Origin: Clostridia bacterium
GTDB lineage: Bacteria; Bacillota; Clostridia; UBA1212; UBA1255
Length of the DNA stretch: 64,000 nt
Assembly (NCBI GenBank): GCA_017560225.1
Contig: JAFYOJ010000090.1
Span: forward strand, 1,386 to 65,385
Direction of reading: 5' to 3'
The first letter of the stretch is position 1. Each line of letters starts with the position of its first letter. The notes under the pieces were generated by a model. It saw only the letters and a list, made by a program, of their open reading frames with translations. It had not been told where the DNA came from and searched no databases. The position numbers and the translations under genes were made by a program. Shown here in pieces: positions 56,024-63,423 of the stretch.

Positions 56024-57187
56024 TTACAAACCCAACTCGTCTAATAACGCTTGCATCTCATCTGCTTTTTCCCGGGAAACATTATGATTGTACAACAATT
56101 CTCTCATAGACCTTTTGGCATGACCACAAAACACTAATTTAAACCACCGTCGAACCTGCATAACCGGTGTGAGCCACTTGTGTTTTTGAAGAATTGGATA
56201 ATGCCGCTTAATTAAATCATACGGAATCACAATTTTTGAAAAAGCGTATTGCAAACGCCCACCTAACTTTTGTTGGCGGAGAACAATTCTATTTTGCAGC
56301 GTTCCGTAAACACCTCCGGAAAGAATAAAGTATTCCATCTTTTTCGTGCAGGCATTACCGGGCTGATTATCAAACCACATTTCGCCAAGAAGTGTTGCAT
56401 TTCTGGCAAATTTACCCACCCCACCTTTTTCAAGGAGTTCCTCATACTTATCTAAATCCTTTTCAGGAAGATGATTCAATATCCACAAATCTAATACCGA
56501 GCGAATACCACAACCGCCGTTTCGAAAATGCTTCGACATATGAACAACATGATAAAAATAGAACAAATCAGCCGGCATTTCCATTTGATATAACCATCCC
56601 GGACGAGCAGTTGCCACATCCCAAAGATTATCAAAAATCCCTGCTATTTTTCCGGTATAATCATCTTCTATAAGGAGAAAGTGCAATTCAATGTGATAGC
56701 CGTTTTGTGAATACAGAGCCACGTCGTGTAAACATCGTGAGCGTTCAACAAATTGCAACTCACCAACTAAAATGGAAACAGCATTTTCCAAATCTTCAAC
56801 TTTCACTAATATGTCAAGATCGCTACAAGTTCGCATCCACGGTTCCGGATAATAGTTTTGCATCACAGCACCTTTTAACGGAATAAATGAAATTTTTGCC
56901 TTTTCAAAGGCATTACAAATACGCACCCGTTCATACTGTTGATTTTCATGTCGATATATGGCCCGAAAAATATACTTTTGCAGCCGAGATTTGCTTTCAT
57001 CATTTACCAAACCATTTTTTATTGCGCCTAACGCTACCAAGTGTGCCAGATCGTGTTTTTCTGCCAAGCGAATAATGTTTGAAAGCAAGTTTTCAGATGC
57101 AATTTGCTTGCTTTCGCTATTCATCGGTTTATTTTGAATAACTGATTGAAGAATTGAAAAAAATATATCTCGCTCTTTCTCGTTCAT
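56024..57187 (-). CDS. Uncharacterized nucleotidyltransferase (NTP_transf_5-like)
   Basis: About 390 aa with the DLDILV nucleotidyltransferase Asp motif, a family common in polysaccharide loci. Start at ATG M24 (AAAGGAAG RBS). First gene of the AT-rich island. Confidence 0.55.
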   Translation of the reverse strand: MNEKERDIFFSILQSVIQNKPMNSESKQIASENLLSNIIRLAEKHDLAHLVALGAIKNGLVNDESKSRLQKYIFRAIYRHENQQYERVRICNAFEKAKISFIPLKGAVMQNYYPEPWMRTCSDLDILVKVEDLENAVSILVGELQFVERSRCLHDVALYSQNGYHIELHFLLIEDDYTGKIAGIFDNLWDVATARPGWLYQMEMPADLFYFYHVVHMSKHFRNGGCGIRSVLDLWILNHLPEKDLDKYEELLEKGGVGKFARNATLLGEMWFDNQPGNACTKKMEYFILSGGVYGTLQNRIVLRQQKLGGRLQYAFSKIVIPYDLIKRHYPILQKHKWLTPVMQVRRWFKLVFCGHAKRSMRELLYNHNVSREKADEMQALLDELGL

Positions 57188-57240: not shown

Positions 57241-58347
57241 CTACTGTTCCAAACAACGCATAAAGTTTTCTTTATTTTCTTTGGCAGTTGTAGTAGGTCT
57301 TCCCAAATCAGCTCTAGCGCCAATAGCACATTTAATTTCTATCAACGTAAGATTATTTTTGTTTTTTGCTTGCCAAAGCGCTTTATCCAGTTCGTCAAAA
57401 TTATCTACAGAAACAACGTTAGAATAGCCGCAACCTTTTGCAATAGCACAAATATCAATTTTGGATGCCACCGTAGGCATTCCGCCAACCGTTTCATGGG
57501 CGCCGTTGTTGATAACAATGTGTACTATGTTTTCAGGAGCCATTGATCCTAATAGAGCAACTGAACCCATATGCATTAACAACGCTCCGTCACCATCAAT
57601 ACACCAAATCTTTTTTTGGGGATTTTGCAATGCAATGGATAGCGCAATAGAGGAACTATGTCCCATAGAACCCACGGTAAGAAAATCATACTGATGGCCT
57701 TGACCATTGATCTCCCGAATTTCAAACAATTCTCGCGATGCTTTTCCCGTGGTAGATATAACAGGATCTGTATCCGACACGGCAACAATGTGTCGAATAA
57801 TCTCCTCACGAAGCATTTTATTGTCATTATTATACGAAACTTTCAAATCACATTCTAATGCGCCTTTCTTAACAACAAAAGCAACCTGTTTCCCCGATTC
57901 CAATAAAGGCTTCCATTGTTCAAGTTGCATAACAACTTCACTTTCGGTTGTTTCCTTACTGATAACAAAAGTACGAATATCCATATCTTCCAAAAGTTTT
58001 ATCGTAACTTCTCCCTGATAAATGTGTTGCGGTTCATCATGAACACCCGGTTCACCTCTCCAGCCAACAAAAAAGATACAAGGAATCCCGTACACTTTAT
58101 CATTCATAAGGGAAGCAACGGGATTAATAATATTGCCAATACCGCTATTTTGCATATAAACCACCGGAATCTTTCCTGTAGACAAATAATAACCTGCCGC
58201 AAGCGCTACGCAATTTCCTTCATTGGCTGCAATAATATGTTGTTTGCCAATACCGTAAGTAGCCATCAAATAGTTGCATAACGGTTTCAGTTGAGAATCC
58301 GGCACGCCTGTAAAAAAATCATAATTCTTTAAAAAATCTAATTTCAT
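57241..58347 (-). CDS. ppd: Phosphonopyruvate decarboxylase (TPP-dependent)
   Basis: Fused alpha/beta TPP-enzyme of about 370 aa with ThDP motif CIDGDGALLMHMGS...N. Sits immediately downstream of a PEP mutase gene. Confidence 0.8.
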   Translation of the reverse strand: MKLDFLKNYDFFTGVPDSQLKPLCNYLMATYGIGKQHIIAANEGNCVALAAGYYLSTGKIPVVYMQNSGIGNIINPVASLMNDKVYGIPCIFFVGWRGEPGVHDEPQHIYQGEVTIKLLEDMDIRTFVISKETTESEVVMQLEQWKPLLESGKQVAFVVKKGALECDLKVSYNNDNKMLREEIIRHIVAVSDTDPVISTTGKASRELFEIREINGQGHQYDFLTVGSMGHSSSIALSIALQNPQKKIWCIDGDGALLMHMGSVALLGSMAPENIVHIVINNGAHETVGGMPTVASKIDICAIAKGCGYSNVVSVDNFDELDKALWQAKNKNNLTLIEIKCAIGARADLGRPTTTAKENKENFMRCLEQ

Positions 58348-58348
58348 T

Positions 58349-59464
58349 TCATTTCACGTCCAATTTTAAAATTAATATATATAAATCATATAAATTTTGT
58401 GTTTCAAGTTTAACAGGATTATTATTCAATCGTGTAAGGTTAACAGATGCAGACAAAACAGGTAAGTCATCCACATGTGCTTTGCACGGAGCTTCCAAAC
58501 CTATTTCGTTGAGTAAATCCGAAAATTTGCAAACCGCCTCATCCACATTTTCACACCCTAATGACTTAGCAATCGCTTCAAAGGTGCTTGCCAAATAAGA
58601 TTTTCCTCTGCGGTCGATACACAAATCCAGATTTTGATGCATATACGCCCATATATAAGGCAAACAAATTGCAACTGCATGACCATGCGGAAGCCCATAC
58701 AGTGACGTGATTTTATAGCTCATAGCATGCGCTGATGTCGTTTGTGTAATATTAATCGCCTGTCCTGCATAGTTGGCGGCCAAAAATATTTCGGTTGTTG
58801 CATGGTCATCGTTTTTAAAAAGATAGGCCTTGTAATTCTTCATAATTGTTTCAACGGCTTTTTGGGAAAGCTTTTTACTTGTTTCCGTAGAATTAACCGA
58901 CCACCATGACTCAATCCCCTGACAAAGAGCATCCATTAACGTACACGTTTTTTGGTAAAATGGAAGTGTTTTTAACACACTAGGCTCAAGAATAGCATAC
59001 TCCGGTATCAAACTTTGGTGGGTAACAGACTGCTTTTCACCGTTATAATAAATAACTGCATATCTTGTTGATTCGCTTCCTGTACCCGCTGTTGTAGGAA
59101 TTGCAATCAGTGGAATCCCTGTATCTTTATATTCCTGTTGCAAAAAGTTGGTTGTTTCATCCATTTTGCAATACAGCTTGATGCATTTCGCAACGTCAAT
59201 ACTACTTCCGCCACCAACCGCCAAAAGCGTATCACATCCTTCAGCATTGAACAAATGCACCCCTTTTGCTACATCTGCATATTGAGGATTCGGTGTAAAG
59301 TCATCAAAAAAAACAATTGGAATTTGAATGTTGTCAATTTGTTCTTTAATGGGTAAGAACTGATAAGAACAGCTGCAAACAATCATAACCTTTCTTGCCC
59401 GCACCGTATTCAAAATATGTTTAAGTTGTTGTATACTCCCGTTTCCTGCAATAACTTTTTGCAT
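58349..59464 (-). CDS. Iron-containing (group III) alcohol dehydrogenase; predicted phosphonoacetaldehyde reductase
   Basis: GGGSSIDVAKCI NAD/Fe-ADH motif and His-rich metal site (HAMSY...HGHAVA). AAGGAG RBS. Function inferred from its position between pepM and ppd. Confidence 0.65.
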   Translation of the reverse strand: MQKVIAGNGSIQQLKHILNTVRARKVMIVCSCSYQFLPIKEQIDNIQIPIVFFDDFTPNPQYADVAKGVHLFNAEGCDTLLAVGGGSSIDVAKCIKLYCKMDETTNFLQQEYKDTGIPLIAIPTTAGTGSESTRYAVIYYNGEKQSVTHQSLIPEYAILEPSVLKTLPFYQKTCTLMDALCQGIESWWSVNSTETSKKLSQKAVETIMKNYKAYLFKNDDHATTEIFLAANYAGQAINITQTTSAHAMSYKITSLYGLPHGHAVAICLPYIWAYMHQNLDLCIDRRGKSYLASTFEAIAKSLGCENVDEAVCKFSDLLNEIGLEAPCKAHVDDLPVLSASVNLTRLNNNPVKLETQNLYDLYILILKLDVK

Positions 59465-59477
59465 AGCGGTACGCTCC

Positions 59478-61487
59478 TTATTCCTCAGGAATTAACGTAA
59501 TAATTTCTTTAATCGACATACACAAATCATCCGCTTCTTTTGCTCTATGGTTGGTTAAAATGATTTTAGCCACATTCTGCATGGCGGGGAATCCGCTCCT
59601 GGTAAGCTGATTTGCATAAATTACAACATTAACACCCCGTTGTTTCCATTCATCTTCCGTCACCGTATTAAATGATGTGGGCACAACTACAATAGGTGTA
59701 TGTGCGTCCTGTTGCCTAAATCTTTCTACAAACGTAAAGATTTCCGTAGGGTCTTTCTTTCGGCTATGAATCATAATGGCATCTGCACCAGCTTTTACAA
59801 ACGCAAAAGCACGTTCAAGTGCATCCTCCATTCCTCGTTCAAGAATCAAACTCTCAATACGGGCACATATCATAAATTCTTTCGTTTTTTGCGCCTTTTT
59901 TCCTGCCTGAATCTTTGCACAGAAATTTTCAATACTATCCTGTGTCTGTTCAACCTCCGTACCAAACAGGGAGTTCTTCTTCAAGCCCGTTTTGTCCTCA
60001 ATAATAACCATAGATACACCCATTCGTTCTAAGGTTTTAACTGTATAAACAAAATGTTCGGTCAATCCGCCTGTATCTCCATCAAAAATAATAGGTTTTG
60101 TGGTAACTTCCATAATATCGTCAATTGTGCGGAATCGAGAAGTCATATCCACAAGCTCAATATCCGGTTTGCCTTTGGCTGTACTATCGCAAAGAGAAGA
60201 AACCCACATAGCATCAAATTGATACGTTTTACCATCTTGAAGCACAGTTGTTTTCTCCGCAATAAGACCGGTAAGACCGCTATGGGCCTCAATTGCAGTA
60301 ACCGTTTTTTTCATATTGATCAATTTTTTCAATCTGCCACGGCGTACATCCGGCATGGCTAATTGTGCACGACTCAATTTGTCCAAATCAGCATATTTAG
60401 CATCTTTGGAATAAGGGTATTCTACAAGTGTTCCACCATATTCTGCAAGAACTTTGGTGACCTCATCTCGAATTGGTTTTTGAAAGCCTTCTTTCCAATC
60501 ATCACCGTGAACAACGTAGGTGGGTTTCATAGTTTTAAGATTTTCCGCATAGCTCAGTTGTTTCTGTTCAATAACCTGATATACACCATTAATGTTTTCA
60601 ATCAAAGATTTTCTTTCCTCGTATGGAAGCAACGGAAAGCGCTTGTAACTGGATACCGCTTCATCAGACAACACACCAATGGTCAACCGTCCAAGTTTCG
60701 CTGCTTTCTTAATAATTGCAATATGACCGCTGTGGATCATATCCGTGGAAAAGCACATATAAACTGTGCGATTTTCCACTTCCGCCAATTTAGTCTTCAC
60801 AACAGCTAAATCTTCCGGGGTATCAATCTCCGTACACAACCGATTGCCAACGTCATACGCCATAATCTCACATTGATCAGAAATCTCGTTAAACGCAACT
60901 TCTGCATAGCATTTTCGGTTATTAGATTCACAGTACTCGCAAATCTTATCTAACCAAACATTCCAATCCTGACTATTTAACTTGTACAATGCCTGCGCTT
61001 CCATAGCGTCGTTAAAAAATTCAACACCGATTTTTTCAACACGGCCATCGTGAACAACTGCCTTAAAATCTTTCTCCGGCAAAGCACAAGTAGAGCTGAC
61101 CTTCATGCAGCTTTTTTCAAAAGCCAACAGTTCATCAAGAACAGATGCTTCAAAAACCAAATCGCCATGCATCAACACAATATCTTCATTCCGAAGATAT
61201 TCTTTTGCACAGTAAATAGAATAAATATAATTTGTCTGGTCGTAAATCGGATTATTCACAAATGTATACTGTAGTTTCAGATTTAACGAATGACAGTAAT
61301 TTACAAGGATTTCATTATAATAGCCTGTTGTCATAACAACGTCGGTAACGCCGGCATCCGCAAGCAATTTAAGCTGGCGGCTTAATATTGTCTCTTTGGC
61401 AGATATTTCCGTCATACATTTTGGATGTTCAGAAGTAAGCACACCCATACGATGACCTAAACCGGAATTTAAAATCAGCGCCTTCAT
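59478..61487 (-). CDS. pepM: Tri-domain fusion: LicC/MobA-like nucleotidyltransferase + HxGH cytidylyltransferase (TagD/CCT-like) + phosphoenolpyruvate mutase
   Basis: Residues 1-230: MKALILNSGLGHRMG (NTP_transferase G-x-G-x-R). Residues about 240-370: CFSTDMIHSGHIAIIKKA (HxGH cytidylyltransferase). Residues about 380-669: PEP mutase motifs FDGDTGG, IIEDKTGLKKNSL, GADAIMIHSRKKDP. Confidence 0.85.
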   Translation of the reverse strand: MKALILNSGLGHRMGVLTSEHPKCMTEISAKETILSRQLKLLADAGVTDVVMTTGYYNEILVNYCHSLNLKLQYTFVNNPIYDQTNYIYSIYCAKEYLRNEDIVLMHGDLVFEASVLDELLAFEKSCMKVSSTCALPEKDFKAVVHDGRVEKIGVEFFNDAMEAQALYKLNSQDWNVWLDKICEYCESNNRKCYAEVAFNEISDQCEIMAYDVGNRLCTEIDTPEDLAVVKTKLAEVENRTVYMCFSTDMIHSGHIAIIKKAAKLGRLTIGVLSDEAVSSYKRFPLLPYEERKSLIENINGVYQVIEQKQLSYAENLKTMKPTYVVHGDDWKEGFQKPIRDEVTKVLAEYGGTLVEYPYSKDAKYADLDKLSRAQLAMPDVRRGRLKKLINMKKTVTAIEAHSGLTGLIAEKTTVLQDGKTYQFDAMWVSSLCDSTAKGKPDIELVDMTSRFRTIDDIMEVTTKPIIFDGDTGGLTEHFVYTVKTLERMGVSMVIIEDKTGLKKNSLFGTEVEQTQDSIENFCAKIQAGKKAQKTKEFMICARIESLILERGMEDALERAFAFVKAGADAIMIHSRKKDPTEIFTFVERFRQQDAHTPIVVVPTSFNTVTEDEWKQRGVNVVIYANQLTRSGFPAMQNVAKIILTNHRAKEADDLCMSIKEIITLIPEE

Positions 61488-61489
61488 AA

Positions 61490-62248
61490 TTATACATTTC
61501 CTTTCTTTTCATTTGATTGATCTTTACGAATATAATTGTTTTTCCTCGGGGTCATATAATCTCCATAGAGCGACGTAAGAAACATATCATATTCTGCTAT
61601 ACATTGATATTGTTGGTCTTCAAAAGGAAGTTCAACCGTTTTCTGCATCATAGTTTTAGGATAAGCATCATAATACGGAGGTGCAAACACTGTTACGTAT
61701 TCAGAATCACTCCAACCATATTGTGTCGAATATGTACGATATACTTTGTTCGTATATGTATCCGGAACAAATATTGCAAACATCTTTGTAAAAAATAACA
61801 ATATCGGTTTCTTAGTAGCGTGAAAAGGTTTGTATTTAGCAGAGAAGAATTGATATAATCTGCGAGTCTTTTTCAAAAAGCGTATACGTTCTTGTGCATC
61901 ATTCGGTGCGCCAATTAAACCATAGATATCAATATGACAATCATAGTGTGACTGACCTTCAAGAATCAAGCGTTCATGACACGAGCCAAAACCTTTTTCA
62001 ACACCGGGAACGCAAAGATGATAATGACTCTTTTTGTCACAACGAATGGCATTTCGTAATTTCAGCAAATCGTCGTGCCGCACAAAAATATCGACATCTA
62101 AGTCCCAAGGGATAAAGCCTTTTTCTCGTACCGCACCCAAAAGAGTTCCATACGCAAGAGAATACCAAATATCGTTCTCTTTGCATACGCGGTGTAGATA
62201 ATTCAGCATTTGTAACAAGTCATCTTTTTGATCATTTTGGGCTATCAT
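61490..62248 (-). CDS. licD: LicD-family phospho-head-group transferase
   Basis: YSLAYGTLLGAVREKGFIPWDLDVDIFV is the LicD family signature. Start at ATG M26 (AAAAGAGGA RBS). Confidence 0.8.
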   Translation of the reverse strand: MIAQNDQKDDLLQMLNYLHRVCKENDIWYSLAYGTLLGAVREKGFIPWDLDVDIFVRHDDLLKLRNAIRCDKKSHYHLCVPGVEKGFGSCHERLILEGQSHYDCHIDIYGLIGAPNDAQERIRFLKKTRRLYQFFSAKYKPFHATKKPILLFFTKMFAIFVPDTYTNKVYRTYSTQYGWSDSEYVTVFAPPYYDAYPKTMMQKTVELPFEDQQYQCIAEYDMFLTSLYGDYMTPRKNNYIRKDQSNEKKGNV

Positions 62249-62268
62249 GCAAATCCTCTTTTCTGTTT

Positions 62269-63396
62269 TTACTGTAGCAAATCCCGAAACAACGCGTCTA
62301 ACTTTGCTACAACCTCGCCCCAACCATATTGTTGGGCTATAATTTCAGATTTTTTACTATACGCGTCCCACAAAGTATTGTCATCTGCAATTTTTGTCAT
62401 AGCATTGCAGACACTTTGGCTATCAGAAGGCGGAAAAATAATTCCGGAATCCTGTACAACACTGGCAATATTTCCAACATCCGAAGAAAGTACGGGCGTT
62501 GCAGTTGCCATTGCTTCAATAATAACTTTTGGAAATCCCTCTGTGACAGATGTCAGAACAAAAGCACGCGATTGATTCAACTCGTTTGCAATGACTGATC
62601 TATTTTGTATGCCGCAAAACTCAACTGCATGGGAAATTCCAAATTGCTCGCACATCGCACAAAGTTCTTCTCTTCGTTCTCCATCACCAATCATTTTTAA
62701 TGTATAATCTTGATGCTGCTCATAGAACTTTGCAAAGCCTTCCAATAAGATATGTTGAGCTTTTTGCCACCGCAAACTGGCCACGTGAATAAATTGTTTT
62801 TTTCTCGGCAGTTTATTATTTTGAAACACGGTGAGATCCACTCCATTTCCAACACAAACAACCGGTTTTGAATAGGAACGACCTAGTGGCAGCAAATCAA
62901 TCATATTTTCTCCGACTGTAACAACTGCGTCCGGAATCCTTAGTATATACTTTCCAATGAGCGGTTTTTTTTTCATGCGCAATGCATCGGAACCATGTAA
63001 ACTCATTACAATTTTGGTACCGTATTTTTTTCTTGCATAGATACCACATTTAATTGTCATGGGCGAAACCACGTGAATAACATCCGGCTTAAAAGCATCA
63101 ATCAGGGGATGCACACTTTTCGCAAATTGATTATACGCATTATTTTTCCGAATAAACTTTAGAACTCGCGCAAAAATATTCTCGTCATATTTGCCCAGCG
63201 GCACATTATCGAGTTCCACTTCAACAACTTCGACGCCTTCTCGATTTTGAAACATCGTACCATCTCGTTTACCGGTTACAATCATTTCATCATAGTCAGA
63301 AAACATCGAATAATAGTACGCATGCAGACCCGCTCCCGGTAGTGTATCCCGCGGGTACGTAGCACTAACGCGCATCACTTTCAATTTCTTTTCCAT
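62269..63396 (-). CDS. Glycosyltransferase family 4
   Basis: GT-B fold with the E-x7-E region EGFPKVIIEAMA. Start at ATG M3 (GAGGT RBS). Confidence 0.8.
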   Translation of the reverse strand: MEKKLKVMRVSATYPRDTLPGAGLHAYYYSMFSDYDEMIVTGKRDGTMFQNREGVEVVEVELDNVPLGKYDENIFARVLKFIRKNNAYNQFAKSVHPLIDAFKPDVIHVVSPMTIKCGIYARKKYGTKIVMSLHGSDALRMKKKPLIGKYILRIPDAVVTVGENMIDLLPLGRSYSKPVVCVGNGVDLTVFQNNKLPRKKQFIHVASLRWQKAQHILLEGFAKFYEQHQDYTLKMIGDGERREELCAMCEQFGISHAVEFCGIQNRSVIANELNQSRAFVLTSVTEGFPKVIIEAMATATPVLSSDVGNIASVVQDSGIIFPPSDSQSVCNAMTKIADDNTLWDAYSKKSEIIAQQYGWGEVVAKLDALFRDLLQ

Positions 63397-63423
63397 AGTC
63401 AACCTCTAATGTCCAAAGTAATG

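Follow-up and report, generated by a model that had tools for sequence, protein, structure and literature searches.

A LicC/PntC-type and a Fom1-type nucleotidyltransferase fused ahead of phosphoenolpyruvate mutase in a predicted hydroxyethylphosphonate cassette

Within a 64,000-nucleotide stretch of a Clostridia bacterium contig (JAFYOJ010000090.1; the whole stretch is called the window here), a single unbroken open reading frame (ORF) on the minus strand, 59478..61487, encodes a 669-residue protein in which two different nucleotidyltransferase folds stand in series ahead of a canonical phosphoenolpyruvate (PEP) mutase, and the question raised by this locus is why one polypeptide should carry two nucleotide-activating domains. 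The best overall explanation, and one that we consider probable, is that all three domains are working enzymes in a phosphonate sub-operon, which would deliver cytidine monophosphate-conjugated 2-hydroxyethylphosphonate (CMP-HEP) to a LicD-family transferase for attachment to a surface polysaccharide. The domain order had been proposed in a sequence-only reading of the window and is borne out by Pfam, NCBIfam, AlphaFold and Foldseek. The N-terminus of the protein is MKALILNSGLGHRMG, and residues 245-259 are CFSTDMIHSGHIAII, matching the text of that reading. Pfam places NTP_transf_3 / NTP_transferase at residues 2-126, CTP_transf_like at 249-346 and PEP_mutase at 386-643, each above its gathering cut-off, and the AlphaFold model resolves separate folds at residues 1-238, 241-360 and 385-669, with a mean predicted local distance difference test score (pLDDT) of 77 and a predicted template modeling score (pTM) of 0.51, at which the packing between domains is not reliable. 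The ORF is divided as follows:

60774..61487, minus strand: NT domain, residues 1-238, a LicC/PntC/IPCT-type nucleotidyltransferase (Pfam PF12804/PF00483)
60408..60773, minus strand: CyT domain, residues 239-360, a Fom1-type HxGH cytidylyltransferase (Pfam PF01467)
60342..60407, minus strand: inter-domain linker, residues 361-382, with pLDDT below 50 and poorly conserved among orthologues
59478..60341, minus strand: Ppm domain, residues 383-669 and the stop codon, a PEP mutase (TIGR02320, Pfam PF13714)

An identical 669-residue protein is encoded on contigs of different samples (among 6 contigs read, the 4 places listed come from 4 samples), and the best 120 matches in a collection of 5.8 billion proteins are all about 669 residues long with the same three Pfam domains; where the source databases name such matches, they label them just 'phosphoenolpyruvate mutase' (NCBI annotation). 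A scan of species-representative genomes, answering the call for a search of this architecture elsewhere, found at least 591 stretches encoding a relative, spread over three phyla, and the best 80 loci were kept. Motif conservation and the ratio of non-synonymous to synonymous substitution rates (dN/dS) were analyzed in 73 full-length orthologous coding sequences, which contain no internal stops. These comparisons confirm that the ORF encodes one genuine polypeptide with three domains predicted to fold separately and to be catalytically intact. The possibility that residues 1-370 form a single bipartite nucleotidyltransferase, which would have undone the proposed architecture, is ruled out, as the two halves occur as separate genes at other loci (L094, L096 and L097). 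Median dN/dS is about 0.05 for Ppm, 0.12 for NT and 0.11 for CyT, values that rest on the closer pairs.

Sequence and fold comparisons mark the Ppm domain as a bona fide PEP mutase. It scores 404.7 bits against the NCBIfam PEP mutase model TIGR02320 (cut-off 319.55) over residues 386-668, and matches PF13714 at 3.5e-54. Its motif, E497-D-K-T-G-L-K-K-N505-S506, is invariant in the 73 orthologues bar one K499R, and corresponds to EDKxxxxxNS, by which Ppm is told apart from other enzymes of the isocitrate-lyase superfamily (PMC6697681). Foldseek matches the domain to the PEP mutases 5unc and 1s2u (target-normalized template modeling score, TMt, ~0.72), and the gene is coupled within its operon to one for an enzyme that consumes phosphonopyruvate, a phosphonopyruvate decarboxylase (Ppd) encoded two genes downstream.

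The middle domain contains more than an isolated HxGH segment, since the full cytidylyltransferase fold is present and closely resembles the N-terminal domain of Fom1. A phmmer comparison with the Fom1 cytidylyltransferase (5x3d) gives 5e-41 over residues 239-361, covering the whole solved domain at ~60% identity as read from the alignment, and Foldseek superposes CyT on the HEP-CMP-bound form of 5x3d with a template modeling (TM) score of 0.89, a root-mean-square deviation of 2.0 Å and 52% identity. The motifs are H252-S-G-H255 and H327-G-D-D-W331; H252, G254 and H255 are kept in at least 72 of the 73 orthologues, while H327, G328 and W331 never vary and 6 sequences have Asn in place of D329. 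In cassettes where the NT is a separate gene, the CyT-Ppm partners keep the CyT motifs and are 45–63% identical to the window CyT, so that the Fom1 domain (52–60%) falls within the family's own range. Fom1 functions as a HEP cytidylyltransferase (PMC6697681, PMC9088020), and by this homology CyT would be the best-supported catalyst for the reaction of CTP and HEP to CMP-HEP and pyrophosphate.

The identity of the N-terminal domain bears most directly on the question of two activating domains. NT aligns end to end (residues 1-234) only with small nucleotidyltransferases of the LicC/IPCT type. Matches to the Ppm domain dominated the whole-model Foldseek search, which did not tell whether LicC or PntC is closer to NT, and profile-sequence alignment was therefore used. 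The NT-subfamily profile matches LicC (1jyk) at 1e-26 over its full length (2-237), Tde-PntC (6pd1) at 1e-20, again over the full length (2-232), and IPCT at 2e-16, also over the full length. The signature residues are G9-x-G11-x-R13...P22-K23, H107-G-D109, E196 and E220-x-D222. The first stretch reads G9-L-G-H-R13-x8-P22-K23, a GxG(T/S)R-x4-8-PK signature in which the T/S position varies among the 73 orthologues (H, S, R, Q or T), and the complete LicC/PntC fold is present, including the metal-binding Asp (D109) and the C-terminal E-x-D (E220, D222). G9, G11, R13, P22-K23, H107-G-D109, E220 and D222 are invariant in 73 of 73 orthologues (E196 lay outside that check), and 48 relatives at 33–60% identity all share G9, G11, R13, K23, H107, D109, E196, E220 and D222. 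Because every catalytic residue is kept, NT is predicted to be an active nucleotidyltransferase; it belongs to a distinct LicC/PntC-like subfamily and is no randomly acquired accessory.

The probable selectivity of this subfamily can be read from two positions. In Tde-PntC, Glu104 and Glu196 contact the amine of 2-aminoethylphosphonate (AEP), and the LicC equivalents are Asp105 and Asp192 (Rice et al. 2019, PMC6697681). In the profile-sequence alignment, the subfamily-invariant His107 aligns with Glu104 of Tde-PntC and the invariant Glu196 with Glu196, and IPCT (2xme) and 4jd0, which act on neutral polyols, have Met and Cys at the His107 position, with no acid. An invariant His in place of the Glu or Asp of relatives specific for AEP or choline suggests that the NT substrate is most likely a non-cationic phosphate or phosphonate, namely HEP or a close pathway relative. 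NT also departs from a strict PntC, which would combine two amine-binding acids with linkage to an AEP transaminase: Glu196 is kept and His107 replaces Glu104, and no recurrent aminotransferase was found in the core neighborhood of the 78 orthologues searched for one. An AEP pathway was rejected on the latter ground.

The conserved neighborhood indicates the pathway in which the protein would act. The best 80 loci encode proteins 74–83% identical over essentially the full length, in Bacillota (Oscillospiraceae, Lachnospiraceae, Ruminococcus sp. FC2018, [Clostridium] symbiosum ATCC 14940), in Bacteroidota (Prevotella, Bacteroides cutis) and, as the third phylum, in a metagenome-assembled genome (MAG) of Sphaerochaetaceae; [Clostridium] symbiosum ATCC 14940, Ruminococcus sp. 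FC2018 and Bacteroides cutis are among the cultured carriers. Context was counted by clustering the ORFs at loci with a full tri-domain gene, 68 of which have at least 2.4 kb downstream and 46 at least 6 kb on both sides. An iron-dependent alcohol dehydrogenase (Fe-ADH, or ADH) follows on the same strand at 62 of the 68 loci, immediately downstream in the case of the window, Ppd lies downstream at 62 of 68, and both are found downstream on the same strand at 60 of 68. Their order varies among the best 80 loci (L005-L084), being Ppm-ADH-Ppd in clostridial loci and Ppm-Ppd-ADH in most Bacteroidales/Prevotella loci, despite at least 74% identity of the fusion protein. The gene content of Ppm, Ppd and a PhpC/FomC-type reductase therefore indicates the HEP branch rather than the AEP branch. 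Other recurrent neighbors are LicD, a TagF-like CDP-glycerol glycerophosphotransferase (PF04464), GT2 glycosyltransferases and Wzx, and occasionally a TarI/IspD-like enzyme.

From this gene content we infer the following route, in which HEP as product, CMP-HEP as donor, LicD as transferase and the NT substrate are all predictions. The Ppm domain would convert PEP to phosphonopyruvate, the downstream Ppd would decarboxylate this to phosphonoacetaldehyde, and the Fe-ADH would reduce the aldehyde to HEP. Joining of HEP and CMP to give CMP-HEP would be assigned by homology to the Fom1-like CyT domain, and LicD, encoded 2 nucleotides upstream, would move the HEP group to a sugar of the polymer, freeing CMP. 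NT would serve as an active nucleotidyltransferase of an ADH-linked subfamily, acting on HEP or a close pathway relative.

In the window itself, every gene between 63.4 kb and 56.0 kb lies on the minus strand, tightly packed in the order GT4 glycosyltransferase, LicD, tri-domain gene, Fe-ADH, Ppd and a PF14907 protein. Those around the tri-domain gene are:

62269..63402, minus strand: GT4 glycosyltransferase (NCBIfam GT4 family matches; Pfam Glycos_transf_1 / Glyco_transf_4 on the source contig)
61490..62248, minus strand: LicD-family phosphotransferase, predicted CMP-HEP:glycan phosphonotransferase (Pfam PF04991 at 3.5e-26)
58349..59464, minus strand: Fe-dependent alcohol dehydrogenase, predicted phosphonoacetaldehyde reductase yielding 2-HEP (NCBIfam TIGR03405)
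57241..58347, minus strand: phosphonopyruvate decarboxylase, Ppd (TIGR03297, 474.5 bits against a cut-off of 312.5)
56024..57187, minus strand: PF14907 (NTP_transf_5) protein, last gene of the low-GC cluster (Pfam PF14907 at 9.7e-39)

The junction sequence, read directly, places the LicD stop codon 2 nucleotides ahead of the tri-domain ATG. The mechanically called LicD ORF (61490-62323, minus strand) starts at a TTG, has 277 residues and reaches into the end of the GT4 gene; the call made on the source contig starts at an ATG at 62248 and encodes 252 residues, and the Pfam LicD match lies entirely inside this shorter form. The best NCBIfam match of the Fe-ADH is TIGR03405 Phn_Fe-ADH (1.8e-48). 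The PF14907 gene ('uncharacterised nucleotidyltransferase'), which closes the phosphonate sub-operon, encodes a third protein of nucleotidyltransferase fold in the cluster; it occurs at 12 of 78 tri-domain loci, and PF14907 has been described adjoining Ppm in another cluster family (Li & Horsman 2022, PMC8942020). Upstream on the source contig are an Asn-synthase-like gene, Wzx, a stand-alone TagD-like cytidylyltransferase, a second LicD, Wzy, another GT4 and an epimerase. The locus is a Wzx/Wzy-type surface-polysaccharide cluster, with the tri-domain gene heading its phosphonate sub-operon. In the source contig (L001 3517-4799) the second LicD adjoins the stand-alone TagD-like cytidylyltransferase of 137 residues, followed by Wzx and the Asn-synthase-like gene, and besides the phosphonate the polymer is likely to bear a further CDP-derived substituent, e.g. 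glycerol phosphate. GC content is 38–39% over the polysaccharide/phosphonate cluster (56-64 kb) compared with 43–50% in the rest of the window. This distinct composition, together with the 74–83% identity across Bacillota, Bacteroidota and the Sphaerochaetaceae MAG, indicates horizontal transfer of the cassette among anaerobes of the gut and rumen. A scan for promoters and terminators within the cluster gave nothing above chance. Among the window and source-contig neighbors there is no Fom3 (B12 radical S-adenosylmethionine (SAM) methylase), Fom4 (epoxidase) or FomD (CMP hydrolase), and the neighbors are instead glycosyltransferases, LicD, Wzx, Wzy and PF14907; a fosfomycin-like small-molecule pathway was rejected for these reasons.

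Since the function of NT is central to any account of the fusion, we traced its subfamily by an exhaustive HMMER search with residues 1-238 against 1.84 billion representatives (50% identity), which returned 193 clusters at E ≤ 1e-30. The best 150 of the 193 were classified using the window's own domains as probes, with Pfam spot-checks. Stand-alone NTs of about 240 residues make up 72 of these 150 nearest clusters, and NT-Fe-ADH fusions some 40, three of them also with LicD and up to 1228 residues long. Three clusters are NT-CyT, one is NT-CyT-ADH and one is of the tri-domain type; a plain NT-Ppm fusion was found in none of the 150. Genomic contexts show the same components in several arrangements. 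One locus (L085) reads [NT-ADH], an APS-kinase-like gene, [CyT-Ppm], a methyltransferase and Ppd, and another (L089) reads [CyT-Ppm], LicD, GT2, [NT-CyT-ADH] and LicD. In L094/L095 the order is Ppd, an NT with a 4-nucleotide overlap with the next gene, [CyT-Ppm] and ADH; in L096 it is Ppd, NT and [CyT-Ppm], followed by a gene of 372 codons; and in L097 it is Ppd, NT, [CyT-Ppm], ADH, [GT2-TagF-like], LicD and an LCP ligase. For four further clusters (P0123, P0124, P0128 and P0173) the contigs were too short or truncated to inform.

NT thus always travels with CyT-Ppm, Ppd and ADH, whether as a separate gene overlapping CyT-Ppm, as an ADH fusion or as part of the triple fusion, and NT and CyT occur as a constant pair within the HEP cassette, in several states of fusion, a relation that is new in this analysis. 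The separate NTs of L094, L096 and L097 are 42–51% identical to the window N-terminal domain, a divergence that makes the association of NT with CyT-Ppm an old one. The junction between NT and CyT in the window protein (…VENRTVYMCF…) lines up with the start of separate CyT-Ppm proteins (MNKVYMSF…), and, given the occurrence of NT as a separate gene overlapping the start of CyT-Ppm, the triple fusion arose when an NT gene was joined to an adjacent, translationally coupled CyT-Ppm gene.

Three mega-fusions combine NT, Fe-ADH and LicD: P0173 (912 residues, locus L091 234-2972), P0237 (890 residues) and P0250 (1228 residues), the last with LicD twice. Such fusions give strong Rosetta-stone support to a predicted order of action from ADH to NT to LicD. 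Related HEP cassettes (L085 9911-10429; L094 4347-5860) also contain an APS-kinase-like gene (PF01583), and L094 has in addition a radical-SAM/SPASM gene adjoining Ppd, NT and CyT-Ppm. In the phosphoramidate pathway of Campylobacter, an APS-kinase-like enzyme 3'-phosphorylates the cytidine diphosphoramidate donor, and by analogy CMP-HEP could be further phosphorylated in lineages with the APS-kinase-like gene.

Several observations weigh against a route through CMP-HEP as set out above. It is gene content alone that points to HEP as the product of the triple fusion, and the Fe-ADH, at 165 bits, falls below the cut-off of 424 bits of the curated phosphonate-ADH model (TIGR03405). The equivalence of His107 and Glu104 comes from profile-sequence alignment, not structural superposition. 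LicD or TagF-like genes are detectable in only ~60% of well-flanked loci (28 of the 46 with at least 6 kb on each side), and synonymous sites are saturated in most pairs, leaving the dN/dS values to a minority of the comparisons. Most pertinent to the question posed here, a HEP-specific NT would be redundant if CyT makes CMP-HEP, as Fom1 alone does in fosfomycin biosynthesis. Given this apparent redundancy and the conservation of both domains, at least one substrate assignment may be wrong: either NT and CyT have different substrates, nucleotides or kinetic roles, or one of the assignments is mistaken.

One rival account divides the labor between two head groups, with CyT producing CMP-HEP and NT activating an unrelated phosphate ester (phosphocholine, glycerol phosphate, inositol phosphate or a sugar-1-phosphate) for a second transferase acting on the same polymer. 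The closest solved relatives of NT, LicC for phosphocholine and IPCT for inositol phosphate, would fit such a role, as would the two LicD genes in the source cluster and the TagF-like and TarI-like genes that recur near the orthologues. However, we consider it unlikely. The second LicD of the source contig adjoins its own stand-alone TagD-like cytidylyltransferase, and one of the two acids that hold a cationic head group is His in NT. No gene that would supply a precursor, be it a choline kinase or transporter or any other, is conserved alongside the tri-domain gene; LicD is the only partner from the Lic pathway in the window cluster and source contig, where neither LicA nor LicB was found. 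The suggestion in the sequence-only reading that one domain might activate choline or a polyol or sugar phosphate accordingly gains little support, for the universally linked genes are Fe-ADH and Ppd only, and NT is tied by fusion, in ~40 of its 150 nearest clusters, to the HEP-forming dehydrogenase and not to kinases or transporters, with every context examined being a Ppm cassette.

Alternatively, cytidylylation could occur early, with a nucleotidyltransferase acting on phosphonopyruvate or phosphonoacetaldehyde and Ppd and/or ADH using CMP-bound intermediates, in which case the fusions to Ppm and ADH would serve to hand over substrate. This corresponds to the channelled route from phosphonopyruvate to a nucleotide-conjugated phosphonate that had been put forward from the sequence, for which we found no specific support and which is retained here as a quite improbable competitor. 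Both nucleotidyltransferases do have fusion partners that produce a phosphonate intermediate (Ppm for CyT, ADH for NT), and prompt capture of the Ppm product would help in view of the unfavorable equilibrium of the mutase reaction. Ppd, however, already pulls that reaction, the homologous Fom1 cytidylyltransferase uses free HEP and was crystallized with HEP-CMP, and the Ppd and phosphonoacetaldehyde reductases of other pathways work on the free acids.

Still less credence can be given to the idea that one of the nucleotidyltransferase domains is catalytically silent and acts as a scaffold or as an allosteric nucleotide sensor for the mutase. It would explain the seeming functional redundancy of NT and CyT, and the low pTM means that the model says nothing about inter-domain contacts that might speak to it, but both folds retain all their known catalytic residues, in no fewer than 72 of the 73 orthologues as well as in relatives down to 33–45% identity, and NT and CyT are under purifying selection of similar strength. 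Lastly, a frameshift or misassembly that artificially joined separate genes, conceivable in that a single indel could fuse the unfused NT and CyT-Ppm genes that overlap by 4 nucleotides in other lineages, has a negligible chance of being correct and is ruled out by the same protein from independent samples and by full-length, uninterrupted orthologues in hundreds of species-level genomes from three phyla.

Returning to the CMP-HEP route, a more far-reaching version can be offered tentatively. NT and CyT may constitute an obligate two-enzyme activation system for HEP-type cell-wall phosphonates, with NT representing a new, HEP-specific branch of PntC defined by His107 and Glu196, and the two domains may provide distinct donors or nucleotide conjugates to LicD- and TagF-like transferases, which in many anaerobes of the gut and rumen would assemble a polymer resembling teichoic acid and containing phosphonate. 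Phosphonate decorations are common on bacterial surfaces, yet their chemistry is poorly known and nearly all work has concerned 2-aminoethylphosphonate. The protein described here marks a compact HEP cassette of Ppm, Ppd, Fe-ADH and two nucleotidyltransferases, and its spread at no less than 74% identity among Bacillota, Bacteroidota and a lineage of spirochaetes in guts and rumens suggests that it confers a surface trait open to selection. That two different cytidylyltransferases are constantly paired appears as an unexplained rule of the HEP pathway, and the fused enzyme offers both activities in one expressible protein. If the two domains do make different donors, this would uncover a new step in phosphonoglycan assembly.

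The architecture itself is on record, contrary to an earlier impression that it had gone unnoticed. In non-redundant RefSeq, 42 'triple fusion' Ppm proteins with PF12804 and PF01467 in addition to PF13714 were counted, representing 2.8% of motif-bearing Ppm (Rice et al. 2019, Nat Commun 10:3698, PMC6697681, Fig. 2b), a class identical in domain content to the window protein, which is a metagenome-derived orthologue. That study provides counts only, with no substrate or genomic context, and its discussion gives no reason for the presence of both domains (PMC6697681). Fusions of Ppm to either type of nucleotidyltransferase, and clusters with two PntCs, have also been reported (Li & Horsman 2022, PMC8942020). 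In the literature searched, we found no characterization of the triple fusion or of a PF12804-type HEP cytidylyltransferase, and the arrangement is thus already recorded and, within that literature, functionally uncharacterized.

Comparison with the closest known systems places each part of the protein in a familiar setting. Fom1 of Streptomyces wedmorensis (CyTase-PepM, PDB 5x3d) has the same architecture as the C-terminal two-thirds of the window protein (CyT-Ppm), and its cluster contains the same upstream chemistry, with Ppd and Fe-ADH leading to HEP. Unlike the window protein, Fom1 lacks an N-terminal LicC-type domain, and in the fosfomycin route CMP-HEP is a transient handle for the radical-SAM methylase, whereas the window gene is surrounded by LicD, glycosyltransferases, Wzx and Wzy. 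LicC, the CTP:phosphocholine cytidylyltransferase of Streptococcus pneumoniae (1jyk), is the solved structure that matches the NT family best, and the adjacent LicD of the window mirrors the donor and transferase logic of LicC followed by LicD; the LicC system differs in that the LicA kinase and LicB transporter are not linked to the window gene and in the replacement of choline-pocket Asp105 by His. The PntC-AEPT fusion of Treponema denticola, Tde1415 (6pd1/6pd2), has the same fold and GxGxR...PK signature as NT. PntC is AEP-specific, with Glu104 and Glu196 holding the amine, while the NT subfamily has invariant His107 and Glu196 and is linked to ADH instead of an aminotransferase. The logic of Tde1415 is nevertheless shared: in it the branch-point enzyme supplying the phosphonate is joined to the PF12804 nucleotidyltransferase that uses it, just as relatives of NT are fused to ADH, and by this analogy the NT-ADH fusion can be regarded as the HEP counterpart of Tde1415.

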